Shown here: positions 2,084 to 25,469 of the stretch, in pieces
Layout: every line of letters starts with the position of its first letter
How positions within the stretch are numbered: the first letter of the stretch is position 1
UHGV virus genome: UHGV-0040380
Direction: 5' to 3' (one strand)
Length of the DNA stretch: 27,512 nt
Origin: a virus
Made by a program: the position numbers and the translations under genes
The notes under the pieces: generated by a model
Databases searched by the model: none
What the model was told of the DNA's origin: nothing
What the model saw: only the letters and a program-made list of their open reading frames with translations

Positions 2084-4486
2084 TCACGCCCATGTCGCAT
2101 CTATGTAGAACGTTGGAGATGTAGTGGTGGACCCTTCAATCGATATTTGTCCTGTTGAAGCATTAATGGTGGCCATTGCCATGCCAAATGAAACGCCATC
2201 ATCAGTGAACGGTACAGGGACATTTTTGGTTACTTTTGGTCTGCACCACCTCGGAAGCGTTAGAACAGTATTGCCATTCGCAAATGAAGTGGCTGCCAGT
2301 TTAATATTAATTGAATTGGCAGTTAAACTTGACGGTGCCTGTACTGTTACGTTTGTTCCAGCCCACCATTGAACAGCTGCTCTTGGCGTGTAATCAACAC
2401 GCGACCACCAGTCGATAATGGCAGAGCAGATAATTTCCGCATACAGACGATACCCTAACTGGCTTTGGTGAATGTCATCACGCAGAAGTGGGTCGTATTG
2501 CGTGTTGAAATACTCTGGATATGGGGCCGGGAGCTGGTGAGTTGTTGTTACACAAATGACGTTATTGCCATATTTCATCATCTGGCGTTTACCAGCCTCG
2601 CGTAACTCCGCAACACCATCGTAATTTGCTGATGGCTGACCAGCCCCTCCAATAAATGACTGGCTATACCACATCCACGGCTCAACCCAAACAGGTACAC
2701 GCCCGAGACTGTTGCAATATAAGACAAACTCATCTATCAGTGCCGCCATATAATCGCCGTTTTGGTTTCCCTGCCCTTCGTTAGTTCCGGCAACCATAAT
2801 AACGATGTAAGCATCACCCGGCCCCTGAGCCTTCAGGAGATCTAACTGTTGCCTCATTGTCTGTCCGGCAACCGCCTTGTTTACAATGCTATATGAACGG
2901 TGTCCGTTCGCTCCATCCATTAATTGCGGAATGTACGAGCTGAACGCAGAAATGAAATCCTCAGCTGTACTATCACCGTGGATAAGGATATTAAGTGGAG
3001 GCTTACAGTGCACACCATTATCAGAGGTATAGCTAGTCACGCCAGTTACTCGTACAATCGTATTGGGAGCACTACTATTAGCTACAAATCCTACCTCGTA
3101 AACGTCACCTACCGCCGAAGTATCATATGGCAGTCTAAAGCTAACACCATTCATTGTAATTACAGCCCAGTTCTTTGACTGTAATGCCACCCCAATAGTA
3201 GCCTTACCGGGAGCGTAGGACAGCAACCCTCCAGGAAGTGAGAATGGAGAACCGTTTACTACCGCGCCTCCAATTGCTTTCTGCCGTACATCCCATTGTG
3301 GAGCACCAGGAGCGCCGTAGAACATCACCCATCCACCTGAGCACCGTAACACAATACCCACTTCATTAAGAGTATTAGACTCAGCACGAATATGTCCTGA
3401 CACATGCTCACCTACTGCAATGGGTACGAACAATCCACGGGTAACAGAATCGGGTAGAGCAAATAGGGCTGCCGTTTCGGAGCTAGCGAATAATGGACCC
3501 TGAGGCGTAAATGAATCCCCGTCCACTGCATAGACAACACAATCAGACCATTCCACTCGCTTCATGCGAATAGGGTTTCGGTTGAGGATGGCCTGCTTAG
3601 CCAGATAATCCACTTCTCCACCGGTTGTTGTGAAATTAAGATGGGAAAACTCAAAAGTGCATTCACCTTCAAACTTCAGCGACTTATAAAGCGAGTAAAG
3701 ATCGCTGTCGAATTTAAGAATGACGTTTTTATCAACGATTACACGGGAGTTTTGCAGATTTCCTGCCTGTGAGGCCGTTCCTGGTATTGTATAAGTTTTC
3801 TTTGTTGCAGAGTGGCAAGGGAAATAAACATAGCCATAGAGATTTACACTCTCCACCCATGCTGCAACAACGTTTGATTGATTGTAAGATGGCATAACGG
3901 TGATTGGTATCGGCTCAAATTTATCCACACCACCGATCTTTTTCCATCCGTCAGGCTGAGCAAGAAGAATCAGCACTTCACTGGCAGAAGCACTCGGAGG
4001 GAGAATGGCTATAGGCTGCCCACTGTCATCCCAGCCAAAAATCATATTCCGGCGACTTGATACCTTTGGCACCAGGTTTACACTGTTTTCAGGAACCCTA
4101 AGCGTATTTCTCTGAAGAGCACCGATGTTGAACATCGCATGCTGAATAAGCATGGTCAGGTAGTCGAATGCATCCTCATGGACCTCTGCAAAAAATTTCC
4201 CCTGATTTCTTAAATCAGTTTCCTGCACTGCTGGAAGGTTACGAGTGATTGATATTGTAATGCCTGGCAAAACAGGAGATGACGTAATAACGCTTCCACC
4301 GGAAGATAAGCCAGCACCTGTAACCATGTAATCTGTCCCCAGGCTCATTGGAGAAACAAGACCGTCAGCGGTTATTGTGCTTACATCAAGATCTGTGTCT
4401 TTAAAAATTCTGAAAGTATATGGGAATGATGTCGTGACTCCATTCCCGAGATACTCATTGTGGCTGATTTCGGTTGAGACTGTCAT
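2084..4486 (-). CDS. Tail fibre/tailspike: T7 gp17-like N-terminal adaptor domain, central receptor-binding region, C-terminal SGNH/GDSL hydrolase (esterase) domain
   Basis: 800 aa. The N-terminal ~110 aa follow the T7 tail-fibre attachment pattern (YLGNG..FPYTF...DY...I.I.R......DL, recalled from memory). Residues ~497-690 carry SGNH blocks: HGDST (Ser codon at 2969-2971), VAGTNEG, DDIHQS. GGAGA 6 nt upstream of the ATG at 4486. Confidence 0.8.
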   Translation of the reverse strand: MTVSTEISHNEYLGNGVTTSFPYTFRIFKDTDLDVSTITADGLVSPMSLGTDYMVTGAGLSSGGSVITSSPVLPGITISITRNLPAVQETDLRNQGKFFAEVHEDAFDYLTMLIQHAMFNIGALQRNTLRVPENSVNLVPKVSSRRNMIFGWDDSGQPIAILPPSASASEVLILLAQPDGWKKIGGVDKFEPIPITVMPSYNQSNVVAAWVESVNLYGYVYFPCHSATKKTYTIPGTASQAGNLQNSRVIVDKNVILKFDSDLYSLYKSLKFEGECTFEFSHLNFTTTGGEVDYLAKQAILNRNPIRMKRVEWSDCVVYAVDGDSFTPQGPLFASSETAALFALPDSVTRGLFVPIAVGEHVSGHIRAESNTLNEVGIVLRCSGGWVMFYGAPGAPQWDVRQKAIGGAVVNGSPFSLPGGLLSYAPGKATIGVALQSKNWAVITMNGVSFRLPYDTSAVGDVYEVGFVANSSAPNTIVRVTGVTSYTSDNGVHCKPPLNILIHGDSTAEDFISAFSSYIPQLMDGANGHRSYSIVNKAVAGQTMRQQLDLLKAQGPGDAYIVIMVAGTNEGQGNQNGDYMAALIDEFVLYCNSLGRVPVWVEPWMWYSQSFIGGAGQPSANYDGVAELREAGKRQMMKYGNNVICVTTTHQLPAPYPEYFNTQYDPLLRDDIHQSQLGYRLYAEIICSAIIDWWSRVDYTPRAAVQWWAGTNVTVQAPSSLTANSINIKLAATSFANGNTVLTLPRWCRPKVTKNVPVPFTDDGVSFGMAMATINASTGQISIEGSTTTSPTFYIDATWA

Positions 4487-4590
4487 GTTAATTCTCCAGA
4501 TAGTCGCAGCACCCGTTGCGCCGCATATCCGGTTATTCTATTACCCGAAAAACCACATATGGATAGACAACCCATAAATACGAACAGATA

Positions 4591-4605
4591 TTACCTTTCA
4601 GGTGA
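4591..4605. promoter_or_regulatory. Operator-like 15-bp dyad TTACCTTTCAGGTGA (copy 1 of 3)
   Basis: Inverted repeat TTACC-N5-GGTAA with one mismatch in the right arm; lies in the divergent intergenic region between the tailspike and the SOS-box gene. Related copies at 4971-4985 and 21882-21896. Confidence 0.4.
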
Positions 4606-4642
4606 TTCGCAAAACGTGCTGGATAGCAAACAAATTATTTGC

Positions 4643-4662
4643 TACTGTATAAATATACAGTT
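4643..4662. promoter_or_regulatory. LexA (SOS) box
   Basis: TACTGTATAAATATACAGTT matches the enterobacterial consensus TACTGTATATATATACAGTA (CTGT-N8-ACAG with AT-rich core) at 18 of 20 positions; sits about 20 bp upstream of the RBS of the 4682-4939 gene and overlaps candidate -35/-10 hexamers (TTGCTA / TATTGC). Confidence 0.75.
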
Positions 4663-4681
4663 ATTGCATGGAGAAGATAAG

Positions 4682-4939
4682 ATGCAGCAGTATCACTATC
4701 CACTGGAAGACGGATTTACCGAAAGGATTCACACGCCGGGAGGCGTCAGGTCACTGGTGGAGGGATCGCACTTGATGAAATTACTCCGGGATCTCGATAA
4801 GGATGGATTTAATGTCGATGGCCCACTTGCCGAACTGACTGCACTGATTAACTACGTCACCAGCTCGCAGATGTCTATGCAGGATCTGCAAACACATCTC
4901 GACTATTGTGCCGAACAATTACGAAAACAAACCAGATAA
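4682..4939 (+). CDS. SOS-regulated small protein of unknown function (85 aa); candidate LexA-controlled antirepressor or moron
   Basis: ATG at 4682 preceded by GGAGAAG; opposite in orientation to all neighbouring structural genes; LexA box immediately upstream. No motif recognised in the sequence. The longer ORF-track start at 4559 would translate through the operator and has no SD. Confidence 0.5.
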   Translation: MQQYHYPLEDGFTERIHTPGGVRSLVEGSHLMKLLRDLDKDGFNVDGPLAELTALINYVTSSQMSMQDLQTHLDYCAEQLRKQTR

Positions 4940-4942
4940 GGT

Positions 4943-4985
4943 TTGAAATTACCAAATGGAGTGCTTATATTTACCTTTGCGGTAA
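4943..4985 (+). promoter_or_regulatory. Sigma70-like promoter (TTGAAA-17-TATATT) abutting operator-like dyad TTACCTTTGCGGTAA (copy 2)
   Basis: -35 TTGAAA (4943-4948), 17-bp spacer, -10 TATATT (4966-4971); the dyad (4971-4985) starts at the last base of the -10 hexamer. Confidence 0.4.
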
Positions 4986-5126
4986 ATTTACATCGCACTC
5001 CTCTTGTGCCATAGTAATCGGGCACTGGCAAAATCCAGTGCTGGGATTGGTCTCCCGGATTACTACAGAGTTAGTGCTACACTCATTGACGCCACATTGA
5101 GGTGGCTTATAGATGGAAATTTCACA

Positions 5127-5288
5127 ATGAAAAAAGCATTTGCTGCACTGTTCGTTTTGTTGTCTCTGGTAGCTTCAACTCAGGCCTTTGCCGGTCGTTG
5201 TCAGCACGACAGCGACACTGCTGCTGACGGCTCCCGCTGCGGTGGGCGTTCTGCGGATTCCCGCCCTGGCGGCGGTGGCATTCGTTAA
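5127..5288 (+). CDS. Small secreted peptide (53-aa precursor with a Sec-type signal peptide)
   Basis: MKKAFAALFVLLSLVASTQAFA has textbook n/h/c regions and an AxA cleavage site; predicted 31-aa mature peptide is G/R/D/S-rich with two Cys. The SD is weak and it is shorter than the ORF-track cutoff, so confidence is modest. Confidence 0.4.
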   Translation: MKKAFAALFVLLSLVASTQAFAGRCQHDSDTAADGSRCGGRSADSRPGGGGIR

Positions 5289-5311
5289 AAACAAGGCCGC
5301 GAAAGCGGCCT
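5286..5311 (-). terminator. Rho-independent terminator after the membrane-protein gene
   Basis: Stem AGGCCGC / GCGGCCT (5294-5300, 5305-5311) with GAAA loop; on the minus strand it is followed by TTGTTTTT (plus-strand A-tract 5286-5292). Confidence 0.6.
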
Positions 5312-5323
5312 GTGACATGTCAC
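5312..5323. repeat. 12-bp perfect palindrome GTGACATGTCAC (copy 1 of 3)
   Basis: Identical 12-mers at 5312-5323, 22855-22866 and 25120-25131; here it overlaps the TGA stop of the 5320-5616 gene and abuts the terminator hairpin. Confidence 0.6.
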
Positions 5324-5616
5324 GTTCCTTTTCTGAATGATAGCCGTTCGAAAAATGATGACATTCCACCGCAGACAATAGCAAAGATGATCCCACCAAA
5401 GAAGAGAAGGCCAGCCTGCCACCACTCCCACCGCCATACATCCACAGCACCAACCATACCAACAATCGCTCCAACAAATGGAATATAGCTCACGATGAAA
5501 GCAATGGGGGCTGCAATTATCCAGTGCAATCCCCACCATGATTCAAGCCCAGCCATAATTGCTGCCAACTGAAAAAGACCAACGACGATATAAACAATGA
5601 ATCCTATAGCTTGCAT
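5320..5616 (-). CDS. Small integral membrane protein (98 aa, three predicted TM helices), standalone gene with its own terminator
   Basis: AGGTGA SD 5 nt before the ATG at 5616; highly hydrophobic with W/G-rich loops; followed by a terminator; lies between the core-protein genes and the tailspike, a position not occupied in T7-type modules. Confidence 0.55.
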   Translation of the reverse strand: MQAIGFIVYIVVGLFQLAAIMAGLESWWGLHWIIAAPIAFIVSYIPFVGAIVGMVGAVDVWRWEWWQAGLLFFGGIIFAIVCGGMSSFFERLSFRKGT

Positions 5617-5628
5617 GTAGTCACCTAT

Positions 5629-5802
5629 TTACCCAGTAAAAATCAGAGGCCTCCCCTCAATAAGGCTTGCAACAAGAACTATTCCCTGCACAACAAAGAT
5701 GAACCAGCAAATAGCTTGAGTCTGAGGGTTAAGAAAATATTTGTAGCGGTCAATAAATAACAACCCACCAGAAATTATCACACTCAAAATAATTAAAAAC
5801 AC
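5629..5802 (-). CDS. Possible small membrane peptide (57 aa, GTG start)
   Basis: GTG at 5802 preceded by AGGAAG with 4-nt spacing; translation (M)FLIILSVIISGGLLFIDRYKYFLNPQTQAICWFIFVVQGIVLVASLIEGRPLIFTG has two hydrophobic segments; fills the gap between the 5812-8286 gene and the membrane-protein gene. Below the ORF-track size cutoff. Confidence 0.2.
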   Translation of the reverse strand: MFLIILSVIISGGLLFIDRYKYFLNPQTQAICWFIFVVQGIVLVASLIEGRPLIFTG

Positions 5803-5811
5803 AACACTTCC

Positions 5812-8286
5812 TTATTGCGGAGTGACATCCTGAGGTCGCCACCAGTATGTCTGATTAAACTCTTTCTTCGAACGTTGCTCCATTTTACGCAAATAGCCTG
5901 GTGAAAAATACTCCTGCATCTGGTTAAAGATCATATGATCGAGAGCCGCCTTTAAGTACCAGAGATTCGCACCGGGCATCAAACCTTTCCCCAGCTTCAC
6001 CAGATCACCACCAGTCTGCTCACTCTTCCCTTCCACAGCATTTAACGGTATGCCCTGAGCAATCTTCACTACGTCATCAACCAGACCAGCTACCGGGCCA
6101 AGCATCGACGCCAGCGCGCCGCTTCCGTACCTAGTGTGATCTGACAATAAAAAGTCACCGTAAAGGCCAAGGCCACCACCTTTCAGTAGAGCACCAAGCC
6201 AGAATTTTGCGGCACCTTCTCCTGTCATCTCTCGAGGATTACGACCAGACGCAAGGTCGTTAAGTTGCTGCGACAAAGCGCCAAGAATGGTCGTACTGGC
6301 AATAAACGTCGCAATATATGCCGCACGCCCACCAGCAGACGGCATACCCATAGCGCGTGACCAGTGACGCATAACAACCGAGATAGGGAACGATTTAAAC
6401 AGGAAAACACTTCTCGTTAATTCACCTTTCCATGTTCCACGCTGAATACCAGAACCGGTTATCAGTTGCTCACGAGCTCCCGGTGTAATAACAGCCATAT
6501 CAACTTCTTCAGTTACGGCACCGAGCAATTTACGCATTGCCTCAAATTTCACGCGCTCAGGCTCACCAAGATGTTTAACTGCTGAATCAGGGATACGCAT
6601 AATGCTTTCCGGTGTCAGCATCGTATTATTACCGTTCCCCCAGTCCTCCTGTTGCGCCAGCTTCCATACGCTCCAGTCTGTGTCAGTAATCCCTTTGCTT
6701 TTCAGGATACGAAAATCAGAGTCATCGAGGCTACGAAGGTCTGGTGTCCGTGACACTACTTCTCCCAGGCTTCCCATCATGGTTACGCCATAGGCGCGCT
6801 TGTGCGCATCTGACCATGCTGTAAGCCCACTGGCACGCATTACCGCCGTTGCCGCCCAACGAGACACTGACGGCCCCATATTATCCATCGCCCAGCGGTT
6901 AACGCTGCCAAGTAGAGATTCCATCGCCAGACCAGCGCGGCGCGCCCGCGCAAGTTCTGTACGGTTCGTTGGGTCCATAGCTTCAAGCTGGTTGCGGAAT
7001 AACTGGTTCATTGGAAGGTTGGTAACCTTCGCAGACAGATACATGGTTCCAAGATCAGAGAACGATGACAGCAACGCGGATCCGAGTCTGCTGGCAACCA
7101 GCCAGTTGCGGATATTGTCAGACCATCGCGCGATGTGCGGATTCGCTACAGGCTGTGTCTTTCCGGAAATAAAGTTGTACAGATTCTCTGTGTTGTTCGC
7201 CAGCCGCTCGACTTTACCGGTTTTACTCGGGTTAGCTGTTGCCGTTTCTGCCTTCACCTGATCAAGAAGAGAGCGGAAAACATGATCGGGGTTTGGGCCA
7301 TATGTTTCCACCAGTGCAATATCTTTACTGATACCTTCCAGGTGACCGACCATGATTTCCCATAGAGAGCGATCACCATAAAGTTGTTGATATTGGAGAT
7401 AGGAATCTGCATCTTTGAAATGTATCTGTCGTGATGCATTACCACGGTTAGCACGTGCGCCGGAAATTCGCATTCCGGTATCAGTAAGCTTATTCAGCCC
7501 ACCAGTAGCGATCGTGTTATAAGCCTCTCCAAGAAATGCAGACAACTCGGCATCGTTCATCAGTTGTCCATCGGCTCGGGTATAATATTTGCGATCCAGC
7601 TTACCTATAACATCGCCAACCCACTTATCCTTTGATACCGCCCCAACCTTTTCCATAGAATGATGTTGAGGGATCCCCCAGTTTTCGAGATAGCCAATGT
7701 CCCCACCAGCATCATTAAACCGGCGGCGCAGCAGCTCTGTAACTTCTCTCCACGCCTTAGCACCTTTTCTTGCTTTAGCATTGCCAGTATTTTGCCCCCG
7801 CATTTCATATACCAGGTCACGTACGCCCGCTTCATCTTCAAACAGACCAAAAAAGCGAGGATCAACTGCTTCGAATGCCTCCTGCAATTGACTCAATGCA
7901 TAATCACGGGTGGCTTTTGTTCTGGATTCAACAGAGAGGAAATTAGATTTACCGTCTGCATTAAAAGCTATAGTACGGTTAAGAGCGCCAAGTTTCCCAT
8001 CAGCCCCTTGATAGCTATTGATAAATTTATCCAATCTCTGACGCGCGGCTATAGTGAGAGCCACACGACGTTTCTTTAATGCCGCTTCTCGCTGTAATTC
8101 TTCAGATGCCAATTGTGCTGCTCGATATAGCCGCTCTGATTCGGAAAGTTGTCGCCACGACATCGGATCATCACGAGCAATGGAGCGCATATTTCGATAA
8201 ATGCGGTCTTCAATGTTCTGTATTTCTCGCGCCGTTAACGTGCGCTGCGCCGCCTGCTGGACCGCTTGTATACATTCCTGTCTCAT
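5812..8286 (-). CDS. Internal virion (core/ejection) protein, large
   Basis: 824 aa; last of three consecutive large proteins translationally coupled downstream of the tubular proteins, matching the position of T7 gp15/gp16-class core proteins; no enzymatic motif recognised. Confidence 0.55.
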   Translation of the reverse strand: MRQECIQAVQQAAQRTLTAREIQNIEDRIYRNMRSIARDDPMSWRQLSESERLYRAAQLASEELQREAALKKRRVALTIAARQRLDKFINSYQGADGKLGALNRTIAFNADGKSNFLSVESRTKATRDYALSQLQEAFEAVDPRFFGLFEDEAGVRDLVYEMRGQNTGNAKARKGAKAWREVTELLRRRFNDAGGDIGYLENWGIPQHHSMEKVGAVSKDKWVGDVIGKLDRKYYTRADGQLMNDAELSAFLGEAYNTIATGGLNKLTDTGMRISGARANRGNASRQIHFKDADSYLQYQQLYGDRSLWEIMVGHLEGISKDIALVETYGPNPDHVFRSLLDQVKAETATANPSKTGKVERLANNTENLYNFISGKTQPVANPHIARWSDNIRNWLVASRLGSALLSSFSDLGTMYLSAKVTNLPMNQLFRNQLEAMDPTNRTELARARRAGLAMESLLGSVNRWAMDNMGPSVSRWAATAVMRASGLTAWSDAHKRAYGVTMMGSLGEVVSRTPDLRSLDDSDFRILKSKGITDTDWSVWKLAQQEDWGNGNNTMLTPESIMRIPDSAVKHLGEPERVKFEAMRKLLGAVTEEVDMAVITPGAREQLITGSGIQRGTWKGELTRSVFLFKSFPISVVMRHWSRAMGMPSAGGRAAYIATFIASTTILGALSQQLNDLASGRNPREMTGEGAAKFWLGALLKGGGLGLYGDFLLSDHTRYGSGALASMLGPVAGLVDDVVKIAQGIPLNAVEGKSEQTGGDLVKLGKGLMPGANLWYLKAALDHMIFNQMQEYFSPGYLRKMEQRSKKEFNQTYWWRPQDVTPQ

Positions 8287-21791: not shown

Positions 21792-21881
21792 ATCAATGAC
21801 TCCGTACGCAATTAAATTATTACCAATTTAACCACATATGATTTATTTATCGTAGACAGTTGACATTTAACGCACGAATTA

Positions 21882-21896
21882 TTACCTTTCAGGTAA
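21882..21896. promoter_or_regulatory. Operator-like 15-bp dyad TTACCTTTCAGGTAA (copy 3, perfect)
   Basis: Perfect inverted repeat TTACCT-ttc-AGGTAA; a consensus -35 hexamer TTGACA lies 16 bp upstream (21860-21865) on the plus strand, the strand that carries the tRNA. Confidence 0.4.
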
Positions 21897-22218: not shown

Positions 22219-22295
22219 GTGGCATTAGCTCAGTCGGACAGAGCAACCGCCTTCTAAGCGGTTGGTCGCAGGTTCGAATCCTGCATGCCACGCCA
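22219..22295 (+). tRNA. tRNA-Arg (anticodon UCU, reads AGA/AGG), phage-encoded
   Basis: Cloverleaf folded by hand: acceptor GTGGCAT / ATGCCAC, D-stem GCTC / GAGC, anticodon stem ACCGC / GCGGT with loop CTTCTAA, T-arm GCAGG-TTCGAAT-CCTGC, discriminator G plus encoded CCA. Resembles E. coli argU but has a different acceptor stem. Confidence 0.9.
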
Positions 22296-25017: not shown

Positions 25018-25046
25018 TGGTAATAGTTACCGTTGTGGTAATAGTA
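25018..25046. repeat. Tandem direct repeats GTGGTAATAGT x2 (7-bp spacer) in the terS leader
   Basis: Identical 11-mers at 25018-25028 and 25036-25046, between the upstream terminator and the terS RBS. Confidence 0.5.
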
Positions 25047-25119: not shown

Positions 25120-25131
25120 GTGACATGTCAC
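25120..25131. repeat. 12-bp perfect palindrome GTGACATGTCAC (copy 3 of 3)
   Basis: Overlaps the TGA stop of the 25128-25469 gene, as copy 1 does for the 5320-5616 gene. Confidence 0.6.
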
Positions 25132-25469
25132 ACTATTAATTTCGTTTCATGCCAGCCTTTGGTCACCCAGCATTGCGAGTCACCACTACACGGGCATGAA
25201 TTCACAGGAACTCTCTCGCCGCACTTACCGCAACGTTTTCTGCTGATCGATTTTATACGCCCGCGCACGCGTGCATCATCCTGGCGGATCAGTAACGCTA
25301 TATACTCACCAAATTCGTAAGGCGCACGCCCGGGGCGACGCGTGGCGCAGTTCCGCTCCAGCATTTCAATTTCCTGAGCATCAAGCACAATCTCCAGCTT
25401 ACGTACACCGGATGCAGCTTGTCTGGCTCTCTGAGCGGCTTTGCGCTCTGCTGCTGATTTAGCCATCAA
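25128..25469 (-). CDS. Small basic protein with a C-terminal Cys-rich (zinc-finger-like) segment; possible regulator
   Basis: 113 aa; Arg/Lys-rich N-terminus and a CGKCG...CPCSGDSQC cluster; last gene before the terminator that precedes terS. Function not established from sequence. Confidence 0.45.
   Translation of the reverse strand: MMAKSAAERKAAQRARQAASGVRKLEIVLDAQEIEMLERNCATRRPGRAPYEFGEYIALLIRQDDARVRGRIKSISRKRCGKCGERVPVNSCPCSGDSQCWVTKGWHETKLIV

Follow-up and report, generated by a model that had tools for sequence, protein, structure and literature searches.

A conserved gene for a putative exported peptide lies behind a truncated immI-type control region, probably through a deletion, in a Uetakevirus prophage of Escherichia coli

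The virus genome UHGV-0040380 (27,512 nucleotides, the whole of which is called the window here) is an epsilon15/phiV10-like (Uetakevirus) prophage of Escherichia coli, and the subject of this work is a small open reading frame (ORF) at 5127-5288 together with the DNA in front of it. A 381-base query spanning the locus (window 4940-5320) is found with 100% identity in E. coli HN257. The small-ORF region forms a short plus-strand island between the tailspike gene (2084-4486, minus strand) and the ejection/virion genes (5812-8286 onward, minus strand), and in relatives the equivalent island is occupied by an antirepressor gene and accessory genes. The initial annotation described a TTGAAA-17-TATATT promoter with a dyad at +1, a weak Shine-Dalgarno (SD) sequence, and an ORF whose signal peptide, with an AxA cleavage site, would release a 31-residue peptide containing two cysteines. 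The promoter, the dyad, the weak SD and the ORF with its quoted sequence all lie where they had been placed, and the following features can be distinguished at the locus.

4943-4971, plus strand: predicted sigma-70-like promoter TTGAAA-17-TATATT (10/12 match)
4970-4986, no strand: operator-like dyad TTTACC-N5-GGTAAA, overlapping the -10 and +1, read from the sequence
5009-5070, plus strand: putative remnant of an IsrK-family small RNA with c4 a1/b1 target sites (Rfam matches below gathering score; fold)
5070-5071, no strand: deletion junction with AG microhomology (2-nt overlap), from alignments to phiv142-3 and Tyrion
5075-5083, plus strand: probable remnant of the native promoter, TG-n-TACACT (extended -10), from conservation in 13 loci
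5091-5106, plus strand: hairpin GCCAC-AUUGAG-GUGGC of the native 5' untranslated region (UTR), from 12 of 13 loci and covariation
5115-5119, plus strand: weak SD-like GGAAA, 7 nt before the ATG, read from the sequence
5127-5192, plus strand: signal peptide codons MKKAFAALFVLLSLVASTQAFA with predicted signal peptidase I (SPase I) cleavage after AFA, from the n/h/c architecture and the family -3/-1/+1 pattern
5193-5288, plus strand: mature 31-aa peptide GRCQHDSDTAADGSRCGGRSADSRPGGGGIR and stop codon, with the motif C-x6-A-x-DGSRCG-x-R-[SA]...RPGG
5294-5311, no strand: GC-rich hairpin AGGCCGCGAAAGCGGCCT common to two convergent genes, from a terminator scan, with a T-run on the minus strand only

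The ORF runs from the ATG at 5127 to the stop codon at 5286-5288 and encodes 53 amino acids (MKKAFAALFVLLSLVASTQAFAGRCQHDSDTAADGSRCGGRSADSRPGGGGIR). It is the RefSeq coding sequence WP_000708858.1, its product bears the NCBI name 'transmembrane anchored protein', and it aligns over residues 1-53 with positions 1-53 of the 53-position profile phrog_14503 ('membrane associated protein', moron category) at E 2.3e-40. Close homologues (n = 57), mostly given the same NCBI name, span Escherichia, Shigella, Klebsiella, Citrobacter, Cronobacter, Franconibacter, Pectobacterium, Dickeya and Salmonella, and homologues are also encoded by E. coli and Klebsiella phages. When 14 Enterobacterales loci were compared, synonymous sites were near saturation (synonymous differences per site, pS, 0.71), while nonsynonymous differences (pN) amounted to 0.11 in the mature core (pN/pS 0.15) and to 0.26 in the signal region (pN/pS 0.37), where the hydrophobic character was kept. 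Because family conservation and pN/pS exceed what chance would give, the ORF can be taken as a real gene; the earlier view was that its signal-peptide architecture is unlikely by chance. Judged from sequence, it is a genuine, already annotated prophage gene under purifying selection. The same pN/pS values and the breadth of the family rule out a spurious ORF, and a longer ORF of 94 aa starting from TTG 5004 was rejected as well, since the in-frame upstream sequence varies between contexts and the RefSeq start is the ATG. The gene is accessory and is transcribed in the direction opposite to the flanking late genes. Its presence varies among close relatives, being absent from phiV10, Tyrion and YDC107_2 and present in phiv142-3, TL-2011b and HEMP4. 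The homologues have an SD-like GGA, AAGGA or AGGT at equal distance from the ATG.

The DNA upstream of the gene belongs to another known kind of element. The site TTGAAA-17-TATATT is the best promoter-like site in 4300-5900; promoter-like sites are not rare as such, with 6 found against 3.5 expected in shuffles. Its hexamers are kept in phiV10, phiv142-3 and Enterobacter phage Tyrion and its spacer diverges, and in these relatives the equivalent promoter would drive an IsrK/C4/antirepressor (immI-type) unit. The arms of the dyad are invariant in the relatives compared and its 5-nt centre diverges. An operator that overlaps a promoter in this way recalls Op51 of P1. Shuffled sequences would give 0.01 copies of the dyad core, TTACC-N5-GGTAA, but the window has three: one at 4971-4985 in the immI-type promoter; one at 21882-21896, between the portal and tRNA genes and shortly after a perfect TTGACA (21861-21866); and one at 25027-25041, at the 5' end of the small-terminase gene and beside phrog_536 'transcriptional regulator' (25131-25469, minus strand). 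The three dyads look like the operator set of one phage regulator. A tRNA-Arg gene (anticodon TCT; 22219-22295, plus strand) lies inside the prophage, downstream of the second of these dyad/promoter-like sites.

The leader between 4977 and 5135 folds at -49.7 kcal/mol, with z = -3.0 against shuffles. It had been described as a nested stem-loop around the hairpin CACTGG-caaaat-CCAGTG (5023-5040); this hairpin and the outer stem are both found in the minimum-free-energy (MFE) structure, but a second inner hairpin had been missed, and the structure is a three-way junction rather than a simple nested stem. The outer stem (5013-5019/5058-5064) encloses the hairpins GCACUGG-CAAAAU-CCAGUGC (5022-5041) and GGGA-UUGGUC-UCCC (5042-5056). 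The hairpins at 5013-5064 were ruled out as a terminator, as they have no T-run. When Rfam was searched at permissive thresholds, RF01394 (isrK) matched at 5022-5087 with 42.1 bits (E 3e-8; gathering score 50), and RF03163 (c4-a1b1) matched at 5009-5061 with 31.5 bits (E 1.5e-6; gathering score 46.7).

In phiv142-3, the equivalent DNA continues as a complete IsrK, which scores 67.7 bits; next come a C4 RNA of 61.2 bits and then the gene for a Bro-N antirepressor. In Tyrion (78% identical), it continues with IsrK (79.9 bits), C4 (73.3 bits) and an antirepressor gene. The a1/b1 match in these intact relatives scores 39.8-39.9 bits, which is also less than the gathering score of 46.7. Because the IsrK match reaches 42.1 bits in the window against 67.7 and 79.9 bits in the intact relatives, the window holds a truncated IsrK copy and not a family member. 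The earlier suggestion that the leader may itself be a small RNA came close, in that its hairpins match the IsrK and c4-a1b1 models, but both matches fall below gathering in the window, whereas IsrK lies above it in the relatives. C4 (RF01695) is found at gathering score nowhere in the window and not even at E<=10 in 4850-5400. Other sequence stands after 5070 in place of the IsrK terminator (a stem followed by a T7 run in phiV10, phiv142-3 and Tyrion), and the Bro-N antirepressor of these three phages is missing from the window, in which the next gene is the 53-aa ORF. Since the promoter, the dyad and the hairpins are conserved in phiV10, phiv142-3 and Tyrion and the Rfam models match, they exceed chance, and the promoter and dyad with the hairpins at 5009-5064 appear to be the 5' part of a P1-type immI module.

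The two halves of the locus meet at a sharp boundary. Homology to Tyrion and phiv142-3 on the left stops at ...GGATTACTACAGAG (5070), and homology on the right, to the DNA upstream of Orf11 in phiv142-3-type phages, starts at (AG)TTAGTGCTACACT (5071). Compared with phiv142-3, about 1.6 kb is lost, comprising the IsrK terminator, the C4 RNA, the Bro-N antirepressor, Orf9, Orf10 and a strong terminator. Of 5426 complete E. coli genomes, two (HN257 and NADC1036) carry the fused form, while 502 match at least one half, in a median of two separate places. All of the 80 IMG/VR contigs that encode the identical protein are unfused. Judged from these comparisons, the unit formed by promoter, leader and ORF is an artefact of a rare deletion. 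In NADC1036, the variant is present in the chromosome and also as a circular 38.7-kb 'guaA phage' record (NZ_CP076267.1, pNADC1036guaAphage), which indicates that losing the IsrK terminator, C4 and ant does not prevent excision.

In unfused phages, the ORF is displaced downstream by about 1.6 kb and has a strong terminator (AGCCCGCGCTGCGGGCT followed by T6) in front of it; this terminator is followed in order by TGGACG-16-TGc-TACACT, a hairpin, a weak SD and the ATG. Comparison of 13 Enterobacterales loci from different genera revealed a -10-like hexamer with an invariant T, A and final T (TAnnnT) at 39-47 nt from the ATG, with T[TG]G-type -35-like hexamers about 17 nt upstream of it; in the unfused loci, the -10-like box is always downstream of a strong terminator. 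A hairpin follows the hexamer after 6-10 nt in 12 of the 13 loci (mean z -1.7). In the hairpin alignment, 79% of the cells are paired and 3 of the 5 pairs have compensatory changes; its covariation score is reached by 0 of 500 shuffles, and slid controls score lower. The native mRNA is predicted to start at or close to the hairpin (5091-5106 in the window), which may serve to stabilise the mRNA as a 5' stem-loop or act as a regulatory site. The deletion endpoint falls in the spacer of the native promoter, so that the -35 (TGGACG) is replaced by CCGGAT and TGcTACACT (5075-5083) is left. On the other side of the gene, the hairpin at 5294-5311, which is kept in phiv142-3 and a Klebsiella locus, is predicted to terminate the convergent gene for a 98-aa membrane protein (5320-5616, minus strand), and it is likely a weaker stop for the small-ORF transcript.

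From these comparisons, we consider it probable that two unrelated, known modules of the Uetakevirus prophage were joined by a deletion of about 1.6 kb, the ORF being an exported-peptide moron cassette and the leader a remnant of immI. The first module (4943-5070) would be the front end of immI, with the dyad-overlapped promoter followed by two hairpins carrying C4 a1/b1 target sites; because the IsrK terminator, C4 and the Bro-N antirepressor have been lost here, these hairpins are without a cognate C4 in cis and without a terminator. The second module (about 5075-5311) would be a self-contained moron cassette consisting of the -10 box, the 5' UTR hairpin, the weak SD, the 53-codon ORF and the shared terminator hairpin. 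The deletion would have removed the -35 of this cassette and left the immI promoter upstream with no terminator in between. In the terminator scan, no plus-strand terminator was found between 4971 and 5127, and the ORF should therefore be transcribable from the immI promoter, in an mRNA about 330 nt long that includes the orphan IsrK/a1b1 hairpins. In a lysogen, the gene would be expressed from the cassette's own weak promoter and, in the deletion variant, additionally from the immI promoter.

As regards the product, the signal peptide consists of MKK, AFAALFVLLSLVA and then STQAFA, with a hydropathy peak over residues 3-12, and the AlphaFold2 (AF2) model has a helix at residues 3-15 of the precursor. 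The proposed signal-peptide architecture with its AxA site holds throughout the family (n = 132): position -3 is A, S, V, G or C in 119 members, position -1 is A or S in 111, and position +1 is G in 124. In the same set, small residues stand 5 and 3 positions before the first Cys and a Gly stands 2 before it. This pattern, AxA followed by G, is a conserved signal-peptidase-I-type site in the family, and the window has A-F-A followed by G. The mature part, C.HD.DTAADGSRCGGRSADSRPGG, is nearly invariant, while the signal region varies in sequence but retains its character. The mature 31-mer contains G8, R5, D4, S4, A3 and C2, with a net charge of +1. A lipoprotein was also considered and rejected, as there is no lipobox and one residue (N, R, P or S) always stands between the G and the first Cys. 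We infer that the product would be a Sec-type precursor that SPase I cuts after AFA (Ala22), delivering a 31-residue peptide to the periplasm, and that Cys25 and Cys38, 13 residues apart, would close by a disulfide a loop bearing the invariant DGSRCG-x-R.

The best surviving alternative concerns this cleavage. The N-terminal segment could instead be an uncleaved signal anchor that tethers the two-Cys motif to the periplasmic face of the inner membrane, as the names 'transmembrane anchored protein' and, for phrog_14503, 'membrane associated protein' would have it; these names, however, are automatic and have no experiment behind them. The motif does occur in a membrane-anchored protein in about 27 of 146 relatives, though by way of a separate downstream transmembrane (TM) helix. 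At a median length of 15 residues, the uncharged stretch that precedes the motif is short for a TM anchor, and residues A/S, A/S and G at -3, -1 and +1 are conserved in 84-94% of the 132 members, as is expected only under the action of signal peptidase I. We therefore regard an uncleaved anchor as unlikely and prefer release of the 31-residue peptide.

The peptide belongs to a widespread family. A pattern scan with one genome per species returned 57 loci, which include Mesorhizobium, Devosia, Methylobacterium, Rhizobium, Bradyrhizobium, Agrobacterium, several cyanobacteria, Bacteriovorax, Vibrio and a Polyangiaceae metagenome-assembled genome. An exhaustive profile search gave 380 clusters (50% identity) at E<=1e-3, spread over Enterobacterales, Rhizobiales, cyanobacteria and others. 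The common motif is C-x6-A-x-D-G-S-R-C-G-x-R-[SA]-x3-R-P-G-G, and its C-6-A spacing is fixed in 127 matches. When the architectures of 146 family representatives were surveyed, 41 were stand-alone proteins of about 50 aa, 37 had the motif at the C-terminus of a longer protein, and 27 had it between a signal peptide and a TM helix with a cytoplasmic domain; in a few long members, the motif is combined with SH3_3 (4) or with PG_binding_1, PG_binding_2 or PG_binding_3 (2 each). Metagenomic relatives include a four-Cys sub-variant of the motif, CPCPY...G..CG.RSA[YW]S[RK].GG...P.C, which occurs in tandem repeats or after SH3_3 and may indicate that the mini-domain binds the envelope as a modular unit.

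Attempts to identify the mini-domain by known families gave little. When the peptide and the 146 representatives were scanned with Pfam, NCBIfam and PADLOC, no model covered the motif; a profile search of PDB sequences returned 0 matches at E<=10, and a cluster look-up of ten diverse relatives gave no informative names. The AF2 model has a predicted local distance difference test (pLDDT) of 73.8, with the signal helix as its sole regular element. A likeness to the Excalibur Ca-binding motif (DxDxDGxxCE) is unsupported, as this family does not figure among the 25 Pfam families matched most often at E<=1. Among 80 neighbouring ORFs from non-enterobacterial loci, no conserved partner was found, with Rap1a in 3 of the 80; among 26 neighbouring ORFs from enterobacterial loci, the neighbours were Ant, phrog_450 and phrog_684.

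For the role of the peptide, we can offer a guess of low confidence, namely that it may be a lysogenic-conversion factor whose target is the cell envelope of the lysogen. The guess is made because the gene lies in a moron hot-spot between tailspike and ejection genes, and because the mini-domain is fused elsewhere to peptidoglycan-binding or SH3 domains or is part of single-pass membrane proteins. A more specific proposal, conceivable but doubtful, is that the unit is an undescribed, widespread exported mini-domain whose disulfide-closed, Arg-rich loop binds an envelope component (peptidoglycan or another anionic polymer), and that in the prophage it is a free periplasmic peptide altering the lysogen envelope, for example in superinfection exclusion; in the deletion variant, its expression would also have been captured by the antirepressor-control promoter.

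Several points weigh against parts of this reading. First, the IsrK and c4-a1b1 matches in the window both lie below the gathering scores of their models. Second, the native promoter scores under the threshold of the consensus scan at every locus tested, so that the gene could possibly be transcribed by read-through from upstream genes. Third, the dyad suggests that the upstream promoter may be repressed in the lysogen, in which case little of the long transcript would be made. Fourth, the NCBI name implies an uncleaved membrane anchor, and literature searches with the protein name, the accession, the PHROG id and the motif found no paper on the protein. Finally, the envelope function is a guess: fusions to SH3 or peptidoglycan-binding domains amount to about 10 of the 146 representatives, there is no conserved neighbour and no PADLOC match, and a Foldseek comparison of the AF2 model with the PDB gave 0 matches, with the confidence of that model being moderate.

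Another possibility is that the deletion variant acts mainly as RNA, with the truncated IsrK/a1b1 leader as a regulatory RNA or a decoy for the C4 of co-resident P1-like elements or prophages and the ORF as a passenger. Both hairpins, the a1/b1-like loops, the promoter and the operator are intact, and IsrK-family RNAs act in trans in Gifsy-1 (PMC4825925). However, the deletion took away both the terminator on which the short trans-acting IsrK isoform depends and the targets of IsrK and C4 (the upstream ORF (uORF) and ant leader), while the purifying selection on the ORF is strong and independent of the leader. An RNA role of this kind is quite improbable beside the joining of two modules by a deletion.

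Still less probable, and largely refuted by the comparative data, is the idea that the promoter (4943-4971), the structured leader of about 150 nt and the ORF form one evolved unit, in which a riboswitch-like or small-RNA-like leader regulates translation of the peptide. In its favour are the terminator-free stretch from promoter to ORF, the leader z of -3.0, the weak SD, and the MFE structure, in which 4982-4988 pair with the SD region (5117-5124); a pairing of this kind in the long leader is a speculative, model-based proposal. Against it, the arrangement is found in only the two named above of 5426 complete E. coli genomes and in none of the 80 viral contigs, the promoter and hairpins elsewhere belong to IsrK/C4/ant and the ORF has another upstream region behind a terminator, and IsrK is cut short at the 5070/5071 junction, which also falls inside the promoter spacer of the cassette. 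The view in the initial annotation that the ORF has its own promoter, with a leader through which its translation may be regulated, is not supported by the relatives, in which these elements precede the IsrK terminator, C4 and the Bro-N antirepressor. Overall, the observation is confirmed, the interpretation in the initial annotation is partly supported, and both halves are of already known kinds. That the peptide is an arbitrium-like communication or bacteriocin-like signal tied to the adjacent lysis-lysogeny (antirepressor) module is barely credible: a small Sec-exported peptide does stand beside an antirepressor module in most Uetakevirus relatives, but its mature sequence is near-invariant across genera and phyla where communication peptides diversify for specificity, members of the family are also encoded outside phages, where no receptor-like gene is conserved next to them, or form part of larger envelope proteins, and the gene persists in the window although ant is deleted.

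The genes around the island were also inspected. The immI-type promoter begins 4 nt past the stop codon of its upstream neighbour, listed here.

4682-4939, plus strand: gp19-like (epsilon15) protein of 85 aa, phrog_450 (E 9e-48; WP_001188252.1 in HN257, PhiV10p24 in phiV10)

The phrog_450 protein has weak similarity to the C-terminal part of the anti-repressor phrog_1760 (E 4.5e-7, profile positions 177-225 of 232), a possible sign that it works with the antirepressor system or is left over from it. Another deletion variant of the island is seen in Escherichia phage YDC107_2 (about 3400-3560), where the gp19-like gene is followed at once by the shared terminator hairpin, with neither the immI leader nor the small ORF present. 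Convergent on the small ORF are two small membrane-protein ORFs, one of 98 aa (5320-5616, minus strand; phrog_3075) and one of 57 aa (5629-5802, minus strand), which adjoin the gene for the 824-aa virion/ejection protein on its downstream side and gave 0 matches in PADLOC. RefSeq assigns the tailspike (2084-4486, minus strand; 800 aa) to the SGNH/GDSL hydrolase family, and this annotation suggests an esterase-type (deacetylating), receptor-destroying tailspike.

Compared with known systems, each half of the locus has a clear counterpart. The protein in the window is identical or nearly so to the phrog_14503/'transmembrane anchored protein' genes of TL-2011b and phiv142-3 (Orf11), which occupy the same position in Uetakevirus prophages, between tail-fibre and ejection-protein genes, and the window differs from these genes elsewhere only in its upstream DNA, with the immI promoter and the IsrK remnant directly in front. 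Phage morons are autonomous promoter-gene-terminator cassettes in prophages (PMC3573123). The small ORF is moron-like as a small accessory gene that runs against the flanking late genes, with putative terminator hairpins on both sides and a presence/absence polymorphism; it differs in that its own promoter is a putative one and has lost the -35 in the window. With IsrK (RF01394), whose mechanism in Gifsy-1 is known (PMC4825925), the window shares the promoter and the two 5' hairpins with the conserved CAAAAUC and UUGG loops, an element that stands upstream of the antirepressor in relatives. Unlike IsrK, it has neither the 3' third with the intrinsic terminator nor the uORF/antirepressor target, and no short isoform is expected.

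In immI of P1/P7, C4 antisense RNA controls icd-ant through a1/b1 and a2/b2 targets (RF01695, RF03163; Citron & Schuster 1990, as cited in PMC7313666). The Uetakevirus relatives keep the order of promoter, a1/b1-like hairpins, C4 RNA and antirepressor, with a Bro-N protein as antirepressor in place of P1 Ant, whereas the window keeps the a1/b1-like element and has neither C4 nor ant. The arrangement of IsrK, c4 and Bro-N is also found in APSE phages (PMC7313666), and the Bro-N anti-repressor at the equivalent locus of Uetakevirus promotes the lytic cycle (PMC9782041).

In conclusion, the finding matters little as such, because the gene is annotated, the RNA families are described and the unit is a deletion accident. 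The deletion variant is nevertheless a natural experiment, in which the C4/antirepressor switch is gone and yet the prophage excises (pNADC1036guaAphage), and it could reveal what IsrK/C4/ant contributes to the induction of Uetakevirus. The residual interest lies in the widely conserved exported mini-domain. The peptide family is among the smallest strongly conserved exported families met here, and we believe that it is a clean candidate for functional work on small proteins.

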